Assembly: GCA_963674965.2 (NCBI GenBank)
Contig: CAXXFL010000004.1
Span: 160,001-224,000 of the forward strand
Direction of reading: 5' to 3'
Length of the DNA: 64,000 bases
From: a bacterium
Lineage (GTDB): Bacteria > RBG-13-61-14 > DATKZS01
Shown here piece after piece: positions 6,533 through 35,694 of this stretch (positions are counted from its first letter, which is position 1; every line of letters begins with the position of its first letter). The notes beneath the pieces are model-generated. The model saw only the letters and a list, made by a program, of their open reading frames with translations. It was not told the DNA's origin and did not search any database. The translations under genes were made by a program, and so were the position numbers.

Positions 6533-7599
6533 AACCGAAAAACGCGATAATCCTGTTGGCCATCGTGGCGGCCCTGATCGGGGCCATCGCGATCTACGAG
6601 TTGGGCATAAAGCCCTCGGGCGAGGAAAAGGAGAAAAAGGACCTCTTACTGTTCCCGGACCTTGACCTCGAGTCGGCGGACGCGATCGAGATCAAGTCGG
6701 GCGACACGGCCGTCACCCTGGTCAAGGCGGGCGACACGGCCTGGGCCATCCAGGGCGACGGGTTTAACGCCGACCCCGACGCGGTGCAAAAGGCCCTGGA
6801 CAAGCTTAAGGAATTGAAGGCCGCCAACGTGACCTCCCGCTCCAAGGACAGCCACGCCGATCTCGGGGTGGACGAGAAGGGGACCCAGGTCAAGGCCAAG
6901 GCCGGCGACAAGACCCTGGCCGCCCTGGTGGTGGGAGAGCAGGGAACGAGCTACGCCACGAGCTTCGTAAGGAAGCTCGACTCCGATGACGTCTACATGA
7001 TCTACGACAACGTAAAGAACGTCTTTACGGCGAAGCCCGAGACCTGGCGCGACAAAAGGATATTCGGGGCCGAGCTTGACGAGGTGGTCGAGATCACCCT
7101 CTACCAGAGGCCGGAAAGCCAGGAAGGCGACACGGGAGCGGCCGCCGCTGACGGCGACACGGCCGAGAAGGGGCCCGCCGACTACGTCGAGTCCCATTTC
7201 AAGAAGAACGACAAGGACGAGTGGGTCAAGGTCGAGGAGGGGACGACCGCGGAAACGGCTTTCCCCGAAGCGGACTCGATCGCCCGGGCCCTCGCCACCA
7301 TGCGCGCCTCGGGGTTTGACGACAAGATCGGCTTGAAGGACGCCGGACTCGATCCCCCCTCCAAGAAGGCCGCGTTCAAATTAAAGGACGGAAGGACCTA
7401 CGCCCTGCACGTGGGCAAGGAGGAGGAGTCGAAATATTTCGTCAGCCGGCCGGACAAGGGCAAGGTGCTTTTAGTCTACCGCTATAACGTAAGCAACGCC
7501 TTCAAGGACAAAAAGGAGGAGAAAAAGGAGGCTCCCGGCATGGGTTTCGATCCCGGCTCGCTCCTCCCCCCTCCATCTTTGGGACCGGAAAACGAATAA
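6529..7599 (+). CDS. DUF4340-like membrane-anchored protein
   Basis: ATG overlaps the upstream stop (ATGA); N-terminal TM; WRDKRIF and GLDPP motifs; usual fourth gene of GldAFG-like operons. Confidence 0.75.
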   Translation: MKPKNAIILLAIVAALIGAIAIYELGIKPSGEEKEKKDLLLFPDLDLESADAIEIKSGDTAVTLVKAGDTAWAIQGDGFNADPDAVQKALDKLKELKAANVTSRSKDSHADLGVDEKGTQVKAKAGDKTLAALVVGEQGTSYATSFVRKLDSDDVYMIYDNVKNVFTAKPETWRDKRIFGAELDEVVEITLYQRPESQEGDTGAAAADGDTAEKGPADYVESHFKKNDKDEWVKVEEGTTAETAFPEADSIARALATMRASGFDDKIGLKDAGLDPPSKKAAFKLKDGRTYALHVGKEEESKYFVSRPDKGKVLLVYRYNVSNAFKDKKEEKKEAPGMGFDPGSLLPPPSLGPENE

Positions 7600-7617
7600 C
7601 CCCTTCCCGCCAAACCA

Positions 7618-7656
7618 CGCGCCTGGATCCGACGCAAAAAGGCCCAGGCGCGTTTT
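7618..7656 (+). terminator. Intrinsic terminator
   Basis: CGCGCCTGG...CCAGGCGCG followed by TTTT. Confidence 0.5.
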
Positions 7657-7749
7657 ACATTATCATGGATTGCCCTGGCCGTTGCATAAACTTGGAGCCT
7701 GGTCTACCCTCATGGGCAAATATTCATTTTAGCAAAAAGGAGTGGCGCC

Positions 7750-8214
7750 ATGCCAAGGGTGGATATCGATCGGGAGTCGCCCGATTTCGCGATCCCCGAC
7801 CATGAGGGACGGGAAGTAAGGCTTTCCGATTTTCGGGGCCGGCCCGTGGTAATAATCTTCAATCGGGGCTTTGTCTGACCCTTCTGCCGCAGGCACATGG
7901 CGCAGTTGCGCCAAGACAAGGACAAGTTCGAGGAGCGCGGGGCCCAGGTCATCGCCATCGGTCCGGAGAAGCCCCGGGACTTCGCCAAGTTCTGGGTCTC
8001 CCACGACATGCCCTTTATTGGCGTCCCCGACCCGGAACACAAGGTGGCCGACCTTTTCGGGCAGGAGTTCAAGCTGTTCAAACTCGGCCGCATGCCCGCC
8101 CAGGTGGTGGTGGATAAAAAGGGAATCATCCGCTTCGCCCATTACGGATCATCCATGGCCGACGTCCCCGAGAACAAGGAGATTCTAGAGATCATCGACC
8201 AAATGGAGGATTAG
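7750..8214 (+). CDS. AhpC/TSA peroxiredoxin-like selenoprotein (UxxC), in-frame TGA at 7876-7878
   Basis: AGGAG RBS, ATG 7750, MPRVDIDRESPDFAIPDHEGREVRLSDFRGRPVVIIFNRGFV-U-PFCRRHMAQL..., continuing in frame into ORF 7897..8214; selABC in the same window. Confidence 0.9.
7879..7913 (+). promoter_or_regulatory. Putative bacterial SECIS element
   Basis: Hairpin TGGCGC-AGTT-GCGCCA (7898-7913); G-containing apical loop about 25 nt after the UGA. Confidence 0.7.
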
Positions 8215-8518
8215 GCGGGAAACGCTTTATCTTCCATCAAGAGGATAGTTCCAATATCCGGTTACCCATGCCATCCATACGGCGCAAATCTCCGGGTTGG
8301 CGGCATTAGTATCCGGGTGACGCGGTTTCAATACTACTGATGCCTTAACCTATGTTTTTTAATAAATCTCAGTAATCTCATAGAATGGGAGACCGAAAAA
8401 TTCCTTGCAAAGGCGGATGAAGTCGGGATCGAGGCCATTATGCCGGCCGCCTATGTAATTTTTCCGCCGTCGAACTCCAGGGCAAATCTAAACGTCAATC
8501 CCCCTGGCACTACCGCGC

Positions 8519-8835
8519 TTATTGGTCTCCAAAACCCCTTAACCTCGACCGGCGGATTTGTAAAATCGAATAGGCGACCAAGCGGAGGTTGGCGTGACGC
8601 TTGATGGCATAGACCACCAAGGTCCGCTCCGGCTTCATCTCGACGTCGTCGGTGGTGAAAAGCACGTTCATTTCGCCGAGGGTGGCGCTGGGGACCATCA
8701 CCCTGACGAAGGCCTTGATGGCGGCGGTCTTGCCGCAATTCCTGGCCTTGATTTTTTCGCGCTTCGATCTTTTCAACCACGGTCGTTGTGGGCCGTACTT
8801 TTTGCCCCGCTTGGGAGGACGTCCCGGTCGGGATA
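8519..8835 (-). pseudogene. Transposase remnant (IS4/IS701-like)
   Basis: Fragment ...PGRPPKRGKKYG...LFTTDDVEMKPERTLVVYA resembles DDE transposase GRPRKYG and L.TTD...Y..RW segments; no complete ORF. Confidence 0.45.
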
Positions 8836-8945
8836 AATGGGGATAACCTCAACTTGGGACCCCATAGTATGCCCATCAAACTCCCCATCTAATAATGGGG
8901 CCAAGGCAAGGCGCGTCCCGTTTTGGGCGGCAACGCTTCAAGCTA

Positions 8946-8974
8946 TTGACATTTGTCATGTATATTAATAGAGT
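8946..8974 (+). promoter_or_regulatory. sigma70 promoter with palindrome over the -35
   Basis: TTGACA-17 nt-TAGAGT; inverted repeat TGACA-TT-TGTCA. Confidence 0.55.
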
Positions 8975-9021
8975 TAACTAGTATGATCTTTCAATTGAGG
9001 ACACGGCTCAGGAGGGAAGAT

Positions 9022-9948
9022 ATGTCGAAAAAATCGATTATTATTGCAATGGCCTGCTTCCTGTGGATTTCTTCCATCGGCGGTTGCCCCCGCGGCAAGG
9101 ACCCCAGCGGCAACGAGCCGCCCGAGGTGCAAAAGGTCACCATCTCCCCCAAGTCCGCCATGCCCGGTACCGTGCTTCGCTGCTCGGCCACCCTCTTCGA
9201 TCAAGAGGGAGACGCGGTGGACCTTGCCTACGAATGGTACGTGAACGGTACCCTGATCCCGGAGGCCAAGGGAATCGATTTCGACACCAACGATTACGTT
9301 GCCGGAGACAAGATTTACGCCAAGGTCTGTCCCAGGGAAAAGGAGTCGGGCCGGACGGGAAAGTGCGACGAATCCACCAAAATCACCCTGGGGGAACTGC
9401 CCTCGTTGACGTTAAAAGGGGTACGCATCGAGCCCGAGCAGATTACGATAGCCGCCGACGCTGAAGCGGTGGTCGATTACGGCGACTTGGACGAAATGGA
9501 CGTGGACGACATATATTACCAGTGGTACGTGAACGGCCAGCTCCTTGAGGACCTGGATGAGTTCGAGTCGACCCTGTCCACGGACTACTTTGCCACGGGC
9601 GATAAAATCCAGGTCAAGGTTTGCACGGACGGGGCCTTCGACAGCGGGACCACCACCGCTTCCGCCATCTACACCGTGCTAAACAAGCCACCGGTGTTCG
9701 TGGGAGACGCGGAGTTGGAATGGGACGGGGAAACCCTTTATCTTACCCTCGAGGCCGAGGACCCGGAGGGGGACGACCTCGAGTGGGTCCTTTTCGCGGG
9801 GCCGCCGGGGGCTTACATCGAGGACGGGGTGGTGTATATCGACCGCGCCAAGGTCAAGCCGGGAAAGTATCGGCTCGAGGTCGGGGTTTCGGACGAGTAC
9901 ACCAAGGACTACAGCCGATATAAATCCACAATAACGGTCCCCAAATAA
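9022..9948 (+). CDS. Lipoprotein with Ig-like repeats
   Basis: GGAGG RBS; signal ending IGGC; two Y.WYVNG repeats; AEDPEGD..GPPG Ig motif. Confidence 0.75.
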   Translation: MSKKSIIIAMACFLWISSIGGCPRGKDPSGNEPPEVQKVTISPKSAMPGTVLRCSATLFDQEGDAVDLAYEWYVNGTLIPEAKGIDFDTNDYVAGDKIYAKVCPREKESGRTGKCDESTKITLGELPSLTLKGVRIEPEQITIAADAEAVVDYGDLDEMDVDDIYYQWYVNGQLLEDLDEFESTLSTDYFATGDKIQVKVCTDGAFDSGTTTASAIYTVLNKPPVFVGDAELEWDGETLYLTLEAEDPEGDDLEWVLFAGPPGAYIEDGVVYIDRAKVKPGKYRLEVGVSDEYTKDYSRYKSTITVPK

Positions 9949-31148: not shown

Positions 31149-32193
31149 CTATCAAAAACCCCCTTTCCTCGAGGATATTCTCGATCTCTTGTCTGGTCTT
31201 GCCCCAGTACCTCATCTTGCCCTCCTCGTCCCACATGGAGTCGAAGGCCGCGCCGTAGTCCGCCGGAGCCGAGTAATAAGGCCGGGCCATGAGGGCGTCC
31301 AGGCTTTTCTTGCCGAACTTCCGGACGTAGCGCTCGATATAGGACGCCCGGTCCTCCACGCCGTAGACCCACTCGTCCATCCAGGCCATGAAGCCCTCCT
31401 CCGTCTTGTTGGCCATGTCGGCCAGGGACCAGAAAAGAACGTCCAGGTTGTAGCAGCCCGAAAGCTCGGCGGGATGGGCCCCAAGCGGCTCCTCGATGAC
31501 CGCGTCCACCCGGAAGCCGGGAACGATGGTGTTGTGGGGACTGCTCTTGACAATGTCCTCGTGGACGATCTCCTCGCAGCTCACGATCACCTTCTTGCTG
31601 GCAAGGCAAGCCCACTTGACCGACCCCAGGGCCCCCCAGTACTGGGCGTTCCCGTGCCTGTCGGCCCGCTGGACGTGAACGACGCACACGTCGGGGTTGA
31701 CGCCCTGGACCACGGGTATGGGCTTTTTGGTATAAGGGCACTCGACCACCCGGAACTTGTCCTCCCCCATGAAGTCACGGACCTTGAACACGTCCGAGGT
31801 CATGATCGCCGGAAGCACGGGCATAAAGGAATAGCCCATGGCCCCGGCCGTGAGCATGGCGTTGTAGGTGAAGTTCGAGAAATCCTCGGCCCGAACCTTG
31901 CCCGCCCGCTGGCGGCGCTCGAGCATGCTGCCGCCCGAGCGGCCGCCCGAGCGAAGGCAATAGGTCAGCACCGCCCGGTCCACGCAGCCGCCGGCAATGA
32001 GCATCTCCACGTCGAACACCCCCGACTGGCTGTAGATGGTCAGGCCCTTTATGCCCCGGCGGATTATCTCGGATATCTGGTTGTAACAGGTCCCGACCGT
32101 GTAGTTGCCGATCACAAGCTCGCAGCCGTCACGCACGAACCGCTCGATCGCCTCCCCCGTCGTCATGATTTTACTCGCCTTATTCTCCGGCAT
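31129..32193 (-). CDS. CoA-transferase subunit A
   Basis: PDVCVVHVQRADRHGNAQ, VIVSCEEIV, PLGAHP. Confidence 0.88.
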   Translation of the reverse strand: MPENKASKIMTTGEAIERFVRDGCELVIGNYTVGTCYNQISEIIRRGIKGLTIYSQSGVFDVEMLIAGGCVDRAVLTYCLRSGGRSGGSMLERRQRAGKVRAEDFSNFTYNAMLTAGAMGYSFMPVLPAIMTSDVFKVRDFMGEDKFRVVECPYTKKPIPVVQGVNPDVCVVHVQRADRHGNAQYWGALGSVKWACLASKKVIVSCEEIVHEDIVKSSPHNTIVPGFRVDAVIEEPLGAHPAELSGCYNLDVLFWSLADMANKTEEGFMAWMDEWVYGVEDRASYIERYVRKFGKKSLDALMARPYYSAPADYGAAFDSMWDEEGKMRYWGKTRQEIENILEERGFLIDVEKSD

Positions 32194-32326
32194 TAATAAA
32201 TCTCCTCGCGAAAAATTTGAAGGCTATTTTATCACGGAAAAGCCGGGAGTCGGATTTTGATCGGCGCGGGTACCCCGCGGCGCCCGGTGGGTTCCCTCGG
32301 CCCTCGCCCACGTGCTACTATAAACA

Positions 32327-32740
32327 ATGATGGACAGGGAAGGACATATTACTCTTCTGACGCTCAGCCTGGGGGCGATAGCGTTGTCCTTTATCTTGCG
32401 GGCGGGACCGGACTTCGTTTATATCCCGGCGGCCTGGGGATTGAGGGCGCCCGGCACGTGCCCGTTCCACGACCTTACCGGACTCAACTGCCCCTTTTGC
32501 GGACTTACAAGAGGCTTCGTGGCCCTGGCTCACGGTGACTTGAGAAGGGCGATCGAGTTCAACGCCATGGCGCCGGCGGCGTTCATTTTCATCGCGTCGC
32601 AGATTCCCTACAGGGCGCTGGCGCTTTGGAGAGGAAACGAGGGCAGGCTGGGAGCGAGGCTGCAAAAGCTGGCGCTTTACTTGATCGGCTCCGCTCTCCT
32701 GATACAATGGCTTTTTTATTTGCTCGCGAGGCTTTTATAA
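32327..32740 (+). CDS. DUF2752 membrane protein
   Basis: CPFHDLTGLNCPFCGLTRG motif. Confidence 0.85.
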   Translation: MMDREGHITLLTLSLGAIALSFILRAGPDFVYIPAAWGLRAPGTCPFHDLTGLNCPFCGLTRGFVALAHGDLRRAIEFNAMAPAAFIFIASQIPYRALALWRGNEGRLGARLQKLALYLIGSALLIQWLFYLLARLL

Positions 32741-32813
32741 AGGTTTCCACCCGCTTGAAAAAAGGAGATGGTATGAATGAAGAGTTTTGAGGTGGTAAAT
32801 ACTTCAACTAGGT

Positions 32814-32994
32814 TAGGAATGATCTATTGGAGTAGGCGGGTCGTGGGCTGGATCGTTTTCGTGAGGCTTATGACCTCGTAAAGGAGATTAGTCAGCCCCG
32901 CGACTGGAGCGCCACCGTAAGGCTAGACCTTGTATAGGAGTTTGGCGGCCCCTCAAAGCGTGTCTACTCCGACCTTAGATCAAATTTATTTCTA
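32814..32994 (+). ncRNA. Candidate IS110 bridge RNA
   Basis: Nested stems TGATCTA/TAGATCA, TTGGAGTAGGC/GTCTACTCCGA, GGTCGTGGGCTG/CAGCCCCGCGACT, CGCCA/TGGCG. Confidence 0.6.
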
Positions 32995-33009
32995 GGGAGG
33001 AGTAAGGAA

Positions 33010-34026
33010 ATGGGAAGGTACATTGGAATCGATCTGCACAGGAATTGTTTCACCTCTTGCGTCCTGGCCGAGAACGGACGGAACTATCTCAAGGACTGGC
33101 GTCTCGAGGATTTGGAGAAGTTTTGCTCGACGCTTCGCGAGTCCGACGAGATCGCGGTTGAGGTCACGGGCAACGTCCGCCTTTTTTACGACGCCGTTCG
33201 CGGCCTCGTTTCCCGCGTCGTGGTTGTCAACCCTCGCCAGTTCAAGGTCATCAGCGAGTCGGTCAACAAAACGGACGGCAACGACGCCAGACGCCTTGCC
33301 CTGTTTTTGTCCAAGGGCCTTTTGCCGGAGGTGAGGATGCCGAACAAGGAACACGCTCAGGTTAAAAGCCTCACTCAAAGCCGGGACAAGCTGGTGAAGC
33401 TTCGCACGGCCTTGAAGAACAAGATCAACAACATCTGCTCGGCCCACGGCATCAACCTGAAGAAGGAATATCTTTCCAGCGAGAAGGGCCTTGAGACGGT
33501 GCAGGAGATACCTTTCGACCCCATGGTCAAGACCGAGGTCCGCGTCCTGGTGGAGCAGATTCGGGGCTTGAACGCCGGGGTCAAGGAGCTTGAGGCCGCC
33601 ATCAAGGACTCGGGCAATCAGCTTCCCGGTCACAAGAATTTGAAGAGCATAAAGGGTATCGGGGACCTTGGCTCGGCCATACTTTTGTCGGTGATCGTTG
33701 ACGTCAAGGACTTCCCCGACGAGGGCAAGCTGGCCTCCTACTTCGGCATCGTCCCCCGGGTTAGCAACTCGAACGAGACCAGCCGCTCGGGCCGGATCAC
33801 GAAGCGGGGCAACAAACTCGGCCGCACTACCCTGGTCCAATGCGCCCTCATCGCCAAGCGTTACAGCCCTTATTTGTCGAGCTTCTACGAGCGTATCAAG
33901 GCCAGGCGCGGCGCGGGCAAGGCCATCATCGCACTGGCTCGCAAATTTTTGAAGATCATTTACATCACTTTACAGGAAAACTTGATTTGGGAGGACTTCC
34001 CGAACGGAGTAATAGCGAAAGGCTGA
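33010..34026 (+). CDS. IS110 family transposase (DEDD recombinase)
   Basis: IGIDLH, AVEVTG, KTDGNDA; YFGIVPRVSNS; ITKRGN; IALARK. Confidence 0.96.
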   Translation: MGRYIGIDLHRNCFTSCVLAENGRNYLKDWRLEDLEKFCSTLRESDEIAVEVTGNVRLFYDAVRGLVSRVVVVNPRQFKVISESVNKTDGNDARRLALFLSKGLLPEVRMPNKEHAQVKSLTQSRDKLVKLRTALKNKINNICSAHGINLKKEYLSSEKGLETVQEIPFDPMVKTEVRVLVEQIRGLNAGVKELEAAIKDSGNQLPGHKNLKSIKGIGDLGSAILLSVIVDVKDFPDEGKLASYFGIVPRVSNSNETSRSGRITKRGNKLGRTTLVQCALIAKRYSPYLSSFYERIKARRGAGKAIIALARKFLKIIYITLQENLIWEDFPNGVIAKG

Positions 34027-34087
34027 GTTTGTAAAATAATTCAGCTAATTTAAAAGGTTGGGTAGACAACCATCATAGGAGGAAGCG

Positions 34088-34906
34088 ATGGCGCAATGCC
34101 CCCGTTGCTCGAGTCGGATACCGGATGGTTCGGCTAAATGCCCCAATTGCGGGGCCGACCTGATAATGGCGCCGGGCGGCTACGCGGGTCCCCCTCCGGG
34201 ACCGGGCGTTCCTTCGCCGGGACAGCCTTTCCGTCCGCCCTTGGCCCCTCCTCCGCCGGGATACTACCAGGGAGCGCCGGGCGGATTCCCGCCGCCCCCG
34301 CCCGCTCCCGAGAAAACCTCGGGCGCGGCCGCGGCCTCTCTCATCCTTGCCATCCTGGGCGTATGCTCCGGAGGCATCCTGGGTATAGTGGGCATGGTGG
34401 TCGGATTTATCGCCCTGTCCTCGATCAACAAGTCGGGTGGGCGGCTGGGTGGAAAGGGACTGGCCATCGGCGGCATAGCCGTCGGGGGCGTCTCGATTTT
34501 CGTGGGCCTGTTCGTGATGGGCATCGTGGCCGCCATTTCCATACCGAGCTTCCTCAAGTACCAGGGCAAGGCCAAACAGGCCGTCGCGAGAACCGAGATA
34601 AACGATTTCCATCTCGCACAGCAAAGGTATTACCTCAGCTATAACGAGTACGCCGACAGCTTCGATACGCTGGGATGGTTTCCGCGAAACGATACTTCTT
34701 ACGCGTATTTTTTAGGACAGGACGAAATCCAGCCCATCGCGGGGGGCCCATATGACCTGCCCCGCGACGTTTATACCTGGGTTGAAAAACACGACTGGCA
34801 GATCATCGCCGTGGCCAATATTGATAGTGACCCGACCCTGGACATATGGATGATGAACAGCGACAAGGGTGAGGTCGAGTGCCTGCTCGACGACTCGGTT
34901 AATTAG
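34088..34906 (+). CDS. Zinc-ribbon / Pro-rich / DUF4190 / pilin-like domain protein
   Basis: CPRC..CPNCG; poly-Pro; TSGAAAASLILAILG..GKGLAIGG; IVAAISIPSFLKYQGKAKQ. Confidence 0.8.
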   Translation: MAQCPRCSSRIPDGSAKCPNCGADLIMAPGGYAGPPPGPGVPSPGQPFRPPLAPPPPGYYQGAPGGFPPPPPAPEKTSGAAAASLILAILGVCSGGILGIVGMVVGFIALSSINKSGGRLGGKGLAIGGIAVGGVSIFVGLFVMGIVAAISIPSFLKYQGKAKQAVARTEINDFHLAQQRYYLSYNEYADSFDTLGWFPRNDTSYAYFLGQDEIQPIAGGPYDLPRDVYTWVEKHDWQIIAVANIDSDPTLDIWMMNSDKGEVECLLDDSVN

Positions 34907-35694
34907 GACCCGGCCCGGCTTATGCCGAAGGCGCGAAAAGCGTTGGCCGTGGTGGCCTCGGCCACTTGTTCGAGGCTTTGATTCCTTATCCCGGCTATGG
35001 TCTCGGCCACCAGCCTTACATAGGCGGGCTCGTTTCTCTTTCCCCTGTGGGGCATGGGCGTGAGGAAGGGGCAATCGGTCTCGATAAGAATCCTGTCCGC
35101 CGGAAGTGACGCGGCCACCTCCGGCGCCTGCCTGGCGTTCTTATAGGTAATCGTGCCGGGAAAGGATATATAAAACCCCATGGCTAAAAGCTGACGGGCC
35201 ATCTCGGGGGACCCCGCGTAACAATGCATGATTCCCCCCGCCCGTGGCGCGCCGTCCTCGCGCAGGATTCTCATCAGATCGCCGTGGGCGTCCCGGTCGT
35301 GGATGACCACCGGCACGTCGAGTTCTCGCGCCAGGCCGAGCTGGTCGCGGAACCTTTTTATCTGGACTTCCCGGGGCGAGTAATTCTTGAAGTAATCCAG
35401 CCCGATCTCCCCGATGGCCACGACCTTTTCCCTTTTCGCCATGTCCCTTATCAGGCTGAGGTCCTCGTCCGTTATCTTCTTGGCGTCGTGAGGATGGACC
35501 CCGGCCGTGGCCCAGATATTCTCCCGACTCTCGGCCACCTCCAGCGCCCTTTGCATGCACTCGAGTCCGTCGCCCGAGCCGATGGTCACAATATACTCGA
35601 CCCCCGCCTCCCGGGCGCGGGCGATGACCTGGTCCCGGTCCTTATCAAAGGCCGGAAAATCCAGGTGAGCGTGAGTATCGAAAAGGGATATCAT
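34903..35694 (-). CDS. tatD: TatD family hydrolase
   Basis: DTHAHL, GVHPH, GEIGLDY, IHDRDA, HCY, ETDCPFL. Confidence 0.95.
   Translation of the reverse strand: MISLFDTHAHLDFPAFDKDRDQVIARAREAGVEYIVTIGSGDGLECMQRALEVAESRENIWATAGVHPHDAKKITDEDLSLIRDMAKREKVVAIGEIGLDYFKNYSPREVQIKRFRDQLGLARELDVPVVIHDRDAHGDLMRILREDGAPRAGGIMHCYAGSPEMARQLLAMGFYISFPGTITYKNARQAPEVAASLPADRILIETDCPFLTPMPHRGKRNEPAYVRLVAETIAGIRNQSLEQVAEATTANAFRAFGISRAGS

Follow-up and report, generated by a model that had tools for sequence, protein, structure and literature searches.

Bridge RNAs, their structural diversity and the targeting of translation-initiation sites by an IS110-family element (IS900) are already known. The bridge RNA of IS621 is made from the left end of the element, and the parts of PMC11208160 and PMC11208158 available to us describe two target guides in it. 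The left target guide (LTG), on the 5' side at nt 50-58, agrees in sense with the left target and the core. The right target guide (RTG), on the 3' side at nt 77-80 (or 74-80 when extended), is complementary to the core and the right target; the handshake bases 81-82 and a linker of 4 nt come after it. In Mycobacterium avium subsp. paratuberculosis, IS900 inserts into translation-initiation signals with the motif CATGNNNNNNTCTCCTT, according to the available text of PMC8141618. A collection of 86 covariance models for 32,190 bridge RNAs contains, in the part of the source that we could consult, many structures that differ from IS621 and yet covary with targets and donors (10.64898/2026.10.21.760802). 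Here we analysed an IS110-family element of 1314 bp, located at 32768-34081 in a stretch of 64,000 nucleotides from a bacterial contig (the window).

Our results suggest that the left non-coding end of this element (about 32785-32975) very probably encodes a bridge RNA, whose first loop reads a translation-initiation region and whose second loop reads the circular junction of the element. A bridge RNA in this left end had been proposed in an earlier note made from the sequence of the window. The proposal is borne out by a structure that covaries among homologues and by guides that track the flanks of each element.

Copies, borders and insertion sites

The borders of the element were set by comparing flanks. 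The host genome contains 10 full copies with 100% identity and one 48-nt left-end fragment. AAAGGAG closes every independent left flank in the host genome (9/9). The remaining copy follows another one in tandem, so that the right end of that first copy serves as its left flank. The right end reads ...CATCATAGGAG in every copy. At 7 of the 9 genuine sites, the right end is followed by 3-8 nt and then by a start codon that opens an open reading frame (ORF) of 60-354 codons. Because AAAGGAG lies on the left and a start codon lies beyond the right end, the element sits between a Shine-Dalgarno sequence and its start codon. The right end itself reads ATAGGAG, so a new Shine-Dalgarno sequence is supplied for the displaced gene.

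The ORF at 33010-34026 matches PF01548 (DEDD_Tnp_IS110, E 2.5e-15) and then PF02371 (Transposase_20, E 1.6e-21), both above the curated cut-offs. The recombinase also matches the solved PDB transposases IS621 (E 6.6e-13, mainly over the C-terminal domain) and ISCro4 (E 1.7e-12). Residues D8, E51, D89, D92 and S254 align with D11, E60, D102, D105 and S241 of IS621 in a phmmer alignment to 8wt6_A, if the chain numbering has the offset of 2 that we deduced, and none of the five varies among 27 aligned homologues.

Among 8000 candidates scored, 4342 protein relatives were found at E <= 1e-40. In GTDB contigs with one genome per species, a relative was encoded in 420 of 484 candidate stretches, and the best 80 of these 420 loci (61-71% identity) were used for the leader comparison. 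The 80 loci come from Acidobacteriota, Planctomycetota, Nitrospirota and other phyla; no close homologue from the same family or order was found among 60 related genomes searched. The 81 upstream regions (window included) gave 62 distinct leaders, and 56 of them were aligned. Four leaders were excluded for having no recognisable left end (L055, L091, L102 and L118), one because the search pattern for the closing-helix 3' strand missed it (L107) and one for a long insertion in arm 2 (L106).

Among the homologues, a start codon lies 3-14 nt downstream in 34 of the 53 loci that have a right end and enough flank, opening an ORF of at least 50 codons or one that runs off the locus. The commonest spacing places the first ATG or GTG at +6 to +8 (30/47 loci). 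These insertion targets are real translation-initiation sites. At the left end, the ATG at +1 to +3 is identical in all 56 leaders. The common core is at most AG, because in one homologue (L084) the element is preceded by AAAGCAG and ends in ATAGGAG.

Structure and probable guides of the leader RNA

The segment 32814-32994, put forward in the earlier note as a strongly folded RNA, folds at -66.5 kcal/mol versus -54.7 ± 4.2 in 200 shuffles (z = -2.78, with 2/200 shuffles as good), and its minimum free energy fold consists of the outer helix and the two arms that had been described. The RNA does not start at 32814, as had been supposed. The region 32785-32975 folds better (-72.2 kcal/mol, z = -2.97) and uses a long-range helix between the conserved 5' strand 32789-95 and 32949-54. 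This structured region is part of the 249 nt of non-coding sequence that precede the ORF at 33010. Conserved G-U pairs, such as column 172 with 202 (U-G in 56/56), place the RNA on the + strand.

The structure was conserved among the 56 leaders. RNAalifold predicted 41 pairs, 17 of them with compensatory changes. Pairs were also counted on a hand-drawn structure (49 pairs in 7 helices), and standard pairs were found in 95.1% of cells versus 89.9 ± 0.2% in shuffles (0/500 as high); both sides change in 19 pairs. When the 3' partners were slid by 1-3 columns, only 33-45% of cells paired. The basal stem of arm 1 is paired in 98.4% of cells with changes on both sides in 4 pairs, and its apical pair 113-128 is A-U in 33 leaders and G-C in 17. 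Both sides change in 6/8 pairs of the arm 2 apical stem, where pair 173-201 is A-U in 30 leaders and G-C in 26. The closing-helix pair 82-241 is U-A in 47, C-G in 4 and U-G in 4 leaders. The second long-range helix (columns 31-35 with 220-224) is paired in 87.1% of cells, with G-C replaced by A-U in 3 leaders.

These data refine the layout drawn in the earlier note. The inner 8 bp of its outer helix (32830-37 with 32962-69) are conserved, with 99.3% of cells paired, whereas the outer 10 bp (32820-29 with 32970-82) are confined to the window copy and compete with a covarying 5' hairpin, whose exact pairing in the window copy is uncertain. The idea of a closed layout was correct in that a helix closes both arms; the second long-range helix, which crosses it, had been overlooked. 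Both arms were found with covarying stems, arm 1 at 32838-32904 and arm 2 at 32905-32948. The segment CGTAAGGCTAGA in arm 2 is not the internal loop it was taken for; it is the apical stem-loop (UAAGGCU/AGACCUUG) with the covarying pair 173-201. In a relative with 34% protein identity (G031), a single-sequence fold also has a long-range helix that closes a hairpin and both loops.

The guide assignment of the earlier note has to be redrawn in a similar way. It let the arm 1 apical loop CUUAUGA pair with the right end TCATAGG and took AAGGCUAG as a junction-like guide. The first complementarity is indeed present in this one copy, but almost every homologue has an apical loop of another sequence and length, whereas the right end is CATCATAGGAG throughout. 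As for AAGGCUAG, it is a strand of a covarying stem, in which AAGGCU pairs with AGACCUU with compensatory changes. This map is therefore almost certainly wrong. The AGGAG motifs that had been noticed in both arms fared better: they belong to the 3'-side guides, one per arm, UAAAGGAG (32879-86) and UAUAGGAG (32933-40). The 5'-side guide of arm 1, the handshake dinucleotides and the swap of guide sides relative to IS621 had all been missed.

The 3' side of arm 1 is ordered G-U-AAAGGAG-AU-UAGU and then runs into the stem. We compared this guide with the left flank of each element. At -7 they match in 49/55 (the guide has A in 41, G in 7, U in 5 and C in 2), and among the 14 guides with a base other than A, 12 match and 1 forms a G-T wobble. 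The matches are 54/56 at -6, 56/56 at -5, 55/56 at -4, 56/56 at -3 including a single C, 56/56 at -2 and 54/55 at -1, and no signal was observed at -8 (9/53 match). When flanks were permuted among 53 loci, the observed 3'-guide total was reached in 0/5000. The AU that follows the guide and the AT at the left end occur together in 55/56 leaders.

The single C at -3 belongs to L084, whose guide reads UAAAGCAG. Its genome has a repeat in about 30 copies, and all six full copies of the element (6/6) are inserted in this repeat, with ...AAAGCAG before them and ATTCCTCGCTCC... after them. Uninterrupted copies of the repeat, in which AAAGCAG is directly followed by ATTCCT, are empty sites. The repeat itself (L130-L133 and about 25 more places in G061) reads ...CAGCCGAACGAAAAGCAG ATTCCTCGCTCCGCTCGGAATGA.... 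L084 is a case of natural retargeting, in which the change of target is mirrored in the RNA guide.

This case bears on the possibility that the RNA fold is unrelated to targeting and that the choice of target lies with the protein, or with a DNA-DNA similarity of the junction (ATAGGAG) to the target (AAAGGAG). Target and junction do have A-AGGAG in common, and such an older view is stated for IS900 and IS117 in the accessible part of PMC1525189. However, in L084 the target has become AAAGCAG and the junction is still ATAGGAG, so that the change is mirrored in the RNA loop and not in the junction. The recombinase is also homologous to the RNA-guided enzyme of IS621. We consider target choice without the RNA very unlikely.

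The 5' side of the target loop has 11 or 12 nt (52% U, 21% G) and begins with NAU in 45/56 leaders. Its local pairing score was 5.38 with the cognate right flank versus 4.56 with non-cognate flanks (0/2000 permutations, n=47), and the longest run was 5.94 versus 5.34 (1/5000 permutations). The window copy has 9 contiguous pairs from -1 to +8 (core G, then GAAGCGAT). Three of the 47 loci (L056, L058 and L086) have 11 contiguous pairs through the start codon, versus 0.3% of non-cognate pairs. The signal is statistical, and the register varies by about 1 nt. In our reading, the 5' side is a genuine but permissive guide, and recognition depends mostly on the Shine-Dalgarno half. Such permissiveness would agree with the 'half-match' behaviour that the accessible part of 10.64898/2026.08.31.748434 reports for IS621.

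Consistently, the G031 relative has the same layout and target, judged from 15 oriented copies. Through its terminal CU, the 5' side of this relative (GAUUUUUCCCU) pairs with the core AG at 15/15 sites; it also pairs with +1 at 11/15 and with +3 to +6 at 13-14/15, in 11-13 cases by Watson-Crick pairs and otherwise by G-U wobble. GGAG and then AU are present on the 3' side.

The 3' side of arm 2 has the order G-R-AUAGGAG-NN. Here the guide matches the right end in 50/50 at -7, -6, -5, -3 and -2, in 49/50 at -1 and in 48/50 at -4, and it does not match at -8 (2/50). In L120 and L121, A is changed to G at -5 in the guide and the right end alike. The donor handshake matched positions +1/+2 of the right flank 38 times, with 29.8 expected and 60/5000 permutations as high; a match above chance is what a handshake model predicts. 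In the window copy, the donor handshake UU does not match the flank, which starts with GA. The 5' strand of arm 2 (GCCACCG or GUCAUCA/G) has 4-5 possible pairs with the core G and the left-end start. In a table read by eye, column 166 (C/U) always pairs with left-end +4 (G/A) as C-G, U-A or U-G wobble. The same strand also pairs with the downstream UGGUGA in 90.1% of cells, column 166 being unpaired there in 25/56. The 5' side of arm 2 is a tentative left-end guide. Taken together, the comparison of the loops with target and donor sequences, which the earlier note had named as a check on its proposal, gave covariation at -7, -6 and -3 of the target and at -5 of the donor.

These matches also have to be set against the view that the leader is only a cis-acting 5' untranslated region, which controls translation or stability of the transposase mRNA and in which the AGGAG motifs are Shine-Dalgarno-like decoys. 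The structure does lie directly upstream of the ribosome-binding site of the transposase, leader structures regulating IS110-family transposases (ISPpu9) are cited in the reference list of PMC11208160, itself consulted in part, and the transcript ends of a bridge RNA are only predicted. But decoys would not vary with the flank of the element they belong to at -7, -6 and -3, and they would not match the right end including the A-to-G change. Nor does this view account for the pairing of the loop 1 5' side with the cognate right flank. We regard a purely cis-acting leader as extremely unlikely.

A bridge RNA would work at this element as follows. Two helices would close the RNA, with two homologous loops inside. 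Loop 1 would read the insertion site, which is a translation-initiation region: its 3' side carries the Shine-Dalgarno guide, the following AU would be the handshake guide for the incoming left end, and its U/G-rich 5' side would pair with the top strand over the core and, to the right of it, the spacer and the start codon. The circular junction of the element would be read by loop 2, whose 3' side (AUAGGAG) matches the right end and whose 5' side probably forms 4-5 pairs with the beginning of the left end. Strands would then be exchanged by the DEDD/Ser recombinase at the common AG (CT on the other strand), and the outcome would be the host Shine-Dalgarno sequence, the element, and a rebuilt Shine-Dalgarno sequence in front of the gene. 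In this scheme the expression of the RNA from a junction promoter, the chemistry and the role of the handshake are taken over from IS621.

Several observations weigh against the bridge RNA reading. The covariation rests on few lineages (one for -3 and one for donor -5), because most guide positions are invariant, and the permutation tests are inflated by the relatedness of the loci. The 5' guide of loop 1 has fewer than 7 contiguous pairs with the flank in 31/47 loci. In a fixed register it gave 4.26 cognate versus 3.99 non-cognate pairs, which was too weak, so that local pairing was used. The 5' side of arm 2 is ambiguous and may be either a guide or one strand of an intramolecular helix. The second long-range helix crosses the closing helix, and the two form either a pseudoknot or alternative folds. 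When 32000-35000 was searched with Rfam cmscan (E up to 10), the single match had E 4.2 and is put down to chance. A strict sigma-70 scan of the natural tandem right-end/left-end junction (L006) found 0 sites, since the -10 lacks its final T. A search for sequencing runs listed no RNA run that contains the sequence. The expression of the RNA from a putative junction promoter, suggested by analogy, and its transcript ends are predictions.

Table 1. Features of the element, its leader RNA and its insertion site in the window. Columns refer to the leader alignment.
Feature	Coordinates	Strand	Remark
Target sequence: AAAGGAG + GAAGCGATG			
Host Shine-Dalgarno AAAGGAG, left half of target	32761..32767	+	core AG = 32766-32767
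Left end start ATGGTATGAATG	32768..32779	+	first two bases AT matched by target-loop handshake bases
Second long-range helix, 5' strand GAGGUGG	32789..32795	+	pairs with 32949-32954
5' hairpin region	32800..32829	+	columns 54-59 with 73-78, 95.5% of cells paired; both sides change in 5/6 pairs
Closing helix, 5' strand GAGUAGGC	32830..32837	+	columns 79-86 with 237-244, 99.3% of cells paired
Arm 1 (predicted target loop)	32838-32904	+	stems covary
Arm 1 basal stem, 5' strand	32838..32850	+	columns 90-99 with 145-156
Target loop 5'-side guide GAUCGUUUUCGU	32851..32862	+	predicted to pair with cognate right flank
Arm 1 apical stem-loop GAGGC...GACCUCG	32863..32878	+	92.6% of cells paired; loop sequence variable
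Target loop 3'-side guide U+AAAGGAG (UAAAGGAG)	32879..32886	+	sense of left flank + core, so would pair with bottom strand
Target-loop handshake dinucleotide AU (putative)	32887..32888	+	same as first two bases of left end
Arm 1 basal stem, 3' strand	32893..32904	+	pairs with 32838-50
Arm 2 (predicted donor loop)	32905-32948	+	stems covary
Arm 2, 5' strand	32905..32917	+	can pair with left-end start or with 32943-48
Arm 2 apical stem-loop UAAGGCU AGACCUUG	32918..32932	+	columns 172-180 with 194-202, 97.3% of cells paired
Donor loop 3'-side guide U+AUAGGAG (UAUAGGAG)	32933..32940	+	sense of last 7 right-end bases
Donor-loop handshake dinucleotide (putative), UU in window copy	32941..32942	+	
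Donor-loop base 3' strand UGGCGG, then second long-range helix 3' strand CCCCUC	32943..32954	+	
Closing helix, 3' strand GUCUACUC	32962..32969	+	pairs with 32830-37
DEDD/Ser recombinase (transposase), 338 aa	33010..34026	+	Pfam PF01548 + PF02371
-35-like hexamer TAGACA in right end	34063..34068	+	putative
Right end ATAGGAG	34075..34081	+	donor left half + core AG; rebuilds Shine-Dalgarno of displaced gene
Right half of target: spacer GAAGCG + ATG of downstream gene	34082..34090	+	downstream gene 34088-34906

Putative junction promoter, tandem copies and the interrupted locus

The right end of the window element has 55 nt (34027-34081) and carries a -35-like hexamer, which is TAGACA in 41 and TTGACA in 11 of 52 homologues. 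At a joined right and left end, it lies 17-18 nt before a hexamer at left-end +5 (TATGAA in 22, GATGAA in 18). The start of the left end may hold the -10-like part of a putative junction promoter (TGGTATGAAT). By eye, the G031 relative has TTGACA, 17 nt and TATAAA across its junction.

A near-identical motif, GGAGTAGAC in most homologues, occurs both at 32828-32837, in the closing-helix 5' strand, and at 34060-34069, which is 14 nt inside the right end. Inspection by eye, made without a tally, found no covariation between the right-end copy and the closing-helix 3' strand. We take the right-end copy as a probable -35 box.

At 32773-32790, 5 nt after the host Shine-Dalgarno sequence, ATG AAT GAA GAG TTT TGA forms a mini-ORF of 5 codons. 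In a few homologues inspected by eye, the conserved ATGAAT also opens a very short frame, which stops before or at the first long-range helix. Such a mini-ORF could catch ribosomes loaded at the captured Shine-Dalgarno sequence, or ATGAAT could simply be the -10 box. On the minus strand, a terminator-like hairpin (GGTTGTCTACCCAACC followed by a T-run) at 34050-34075 overlaps the right end and could stop antisense transcription entering the element.

Tandem copies were observed in the host genome, on contig 7 (about 6724-9358; L006 and L010), where two copies lie head to tail and have AGGAG in common. The left flank of the second copy, ATAGGAG, differs from the preferred target by one base, so that the element nearly regenerates its own target. 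Among the homologues, right-end tips are duplicated in L101 and L074, and the left flank of L120 is ATAGGAG. The lone 48-nt left-end piece of the host genome (L011; contig 6, 1074153-1074200) is equivalent to window 32761-32808 and is followed by unrelated sequence.

In three sequencing runs, whose reads were used as contigs, the copy depth was high and further insertion sites appeared as loose ends; the lone left-end piece was seen there too, as a contig of 48 nt with one loose end. One joint of a right end to a left end was found in run X3. This joint may be the contig 7 tandem pair, and it does not count as evidence of circles.

The element interrupts a locus with a DUF2752 gene (32327-32740) on one side and, on the other, a gene for a membrane protein with zinc-ribbon, DUF4190 and pilin-like features (34088-34906). 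The latter is the gene whose ribosome-binding site was struck. Many homologues (L046, L050, L053, L058, L059, L069 and others) have an extra 200-330 nt between the transposase stop and the right end. This sequence is GC-rich and hairpin-prone (GGGGCGCTGCCCCGG...CCAGGGGGACACCCCCTG), and the window element is without it.

Comparison with known systems

Bridge recombinases are under development for genome writing, and their natural variants reveal which changes the scaffold can accept. If our reading holds, a bridge RNA can be closed by extra helices, and its loop architecture also functions when the element has the reverse orientation relative to the core. A guide of 7 nt together with a U/G-rich guide of 9-11 nt could address thousands of ribosome-binding sites, with the Shine-Dalgarno sequence of the displaced gene preserved. 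The natural retargeting in L084 required changes in both target-loop guides, a single base on the 3' side and a new composition of the 5' side. For annotation, the reading would explain why elements lie exactly between Shine-Dalgarno sequence and start codon in many soil and sediment bacteria, and it offers a rule for their borders. The known mechanism is unchanged by this finding.

A wider picture can be put forward tentatively, as somewhat short of probable. In a deep IS110 branch spread over several phyla (420 GTDB loci, with a relative recognisable at 34% protein identity), the bridge RNA might be a generic reader of initiation regions, one guide reading the Shine-Dalgarno sequence and a U/G-rich, wobble-tolerant guide reading the spacer and the start codon. 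The strand logic would be mirrored relative to IS621 and, seemingly, to IS900. The element would enter in sense orientation, rebuild the Shine-Dalgarno sequence and nearly regenerate its own target, which would explain tandem copies. Its loops would lie inside crossing long-range helices, possibly a pseudoknot, and one lineage would have been reprogrammed naturally to a genomic repeat through both target-loop guides.

In the literature that we searched, no bridge RNA reading a Shine-Dalgarno sequence and a start codon, no mirrored strand order and no crossing closing helices were found; a search on IS110 with Shine-Dalgarno or ribosome-binding sites likewise found no bridge RNA aimed at such sites, and the one paper in which the terms occurred together mentioned Shine-Dalgarno solely in connection with a riboswitch. 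Section 2.4 of 10.64898/2026.10.21.760802, the relevant part at hand, names no Shine-Dalgarno-targeting class, swapped guide order or closing helices. The family of the window element may well be among the 86 models of that collection.

Like the seekRNA of the IS1111 group, as described in the available part of PMC11187229, the window system has a DEDD transposase that would be guided by an RNA whose short guides match the target and the ends. IS1111 RNAs come from a long right end downstream of the transposase, and their elements have long subterminal inverted repeats, whereas the RNA of the window element lies upstream and its right end is short. With its upstream RNA and 55-nt right end, the window element lacks the layout of the IS1111-group seekRNA.

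IS900 has a matching target. Its motif CATGNNNNNNTCTCCTT is the reverse complement of AAGGAGA-N6-CATG, the target of the window element. In the passages of PMC8141618 that we consulted, the motif is written in IS900 orientation, and the host-dependent hed ORF is opposite to the transposase strand. This orientation would place the IS900 transposase antisense to the targeted gene, while the window transposase runs in the same direction as its gene; for IS900 this follows from the published description.

The comparison with IS621, which relies on the available parts of the IS621 papers, is the most detailed. Both RNAs are placed in the left non-coding end, upstream of a DEDD/Ser recombinase and on the same strand. 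Both have two pseudo-symmetric loops, each built as stem, guide, stem-loop and guide, with both guides including the core; in the window RNA, loop 1 is clear, whereas the 3' side of loop 2 is long and its 5' side, a tentative guide, is also able to pair intramolecularly. A 2-nt handshake, putative in the window RNA, follows the 3'-side guide in both, with the same 3'-side spacing (G-U, 7, 2, 4; taking the extended RTG). The core is CT in both, here on the other strand, and a short inverted repeat CAT...ATG flanks the donor core. In contrast to the guide order of IS621, the 3' side and the handshake of the window RNA have the sense of the left junction, and the two descriptions fit each other only if the CT strand is antisense to the transposase. 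The loops look homologous to the IS621 loops, but the element is reversed relative to the core. Finally, IS621 RNA consists of a 5' stem-loop and two further stem-loops and is aimed at a site resembling repetitive extragenic palindromes (REP-like), whereas the loops of the window RNA are closed by two long-range helices and the target of the window element is a translation-initiation region.

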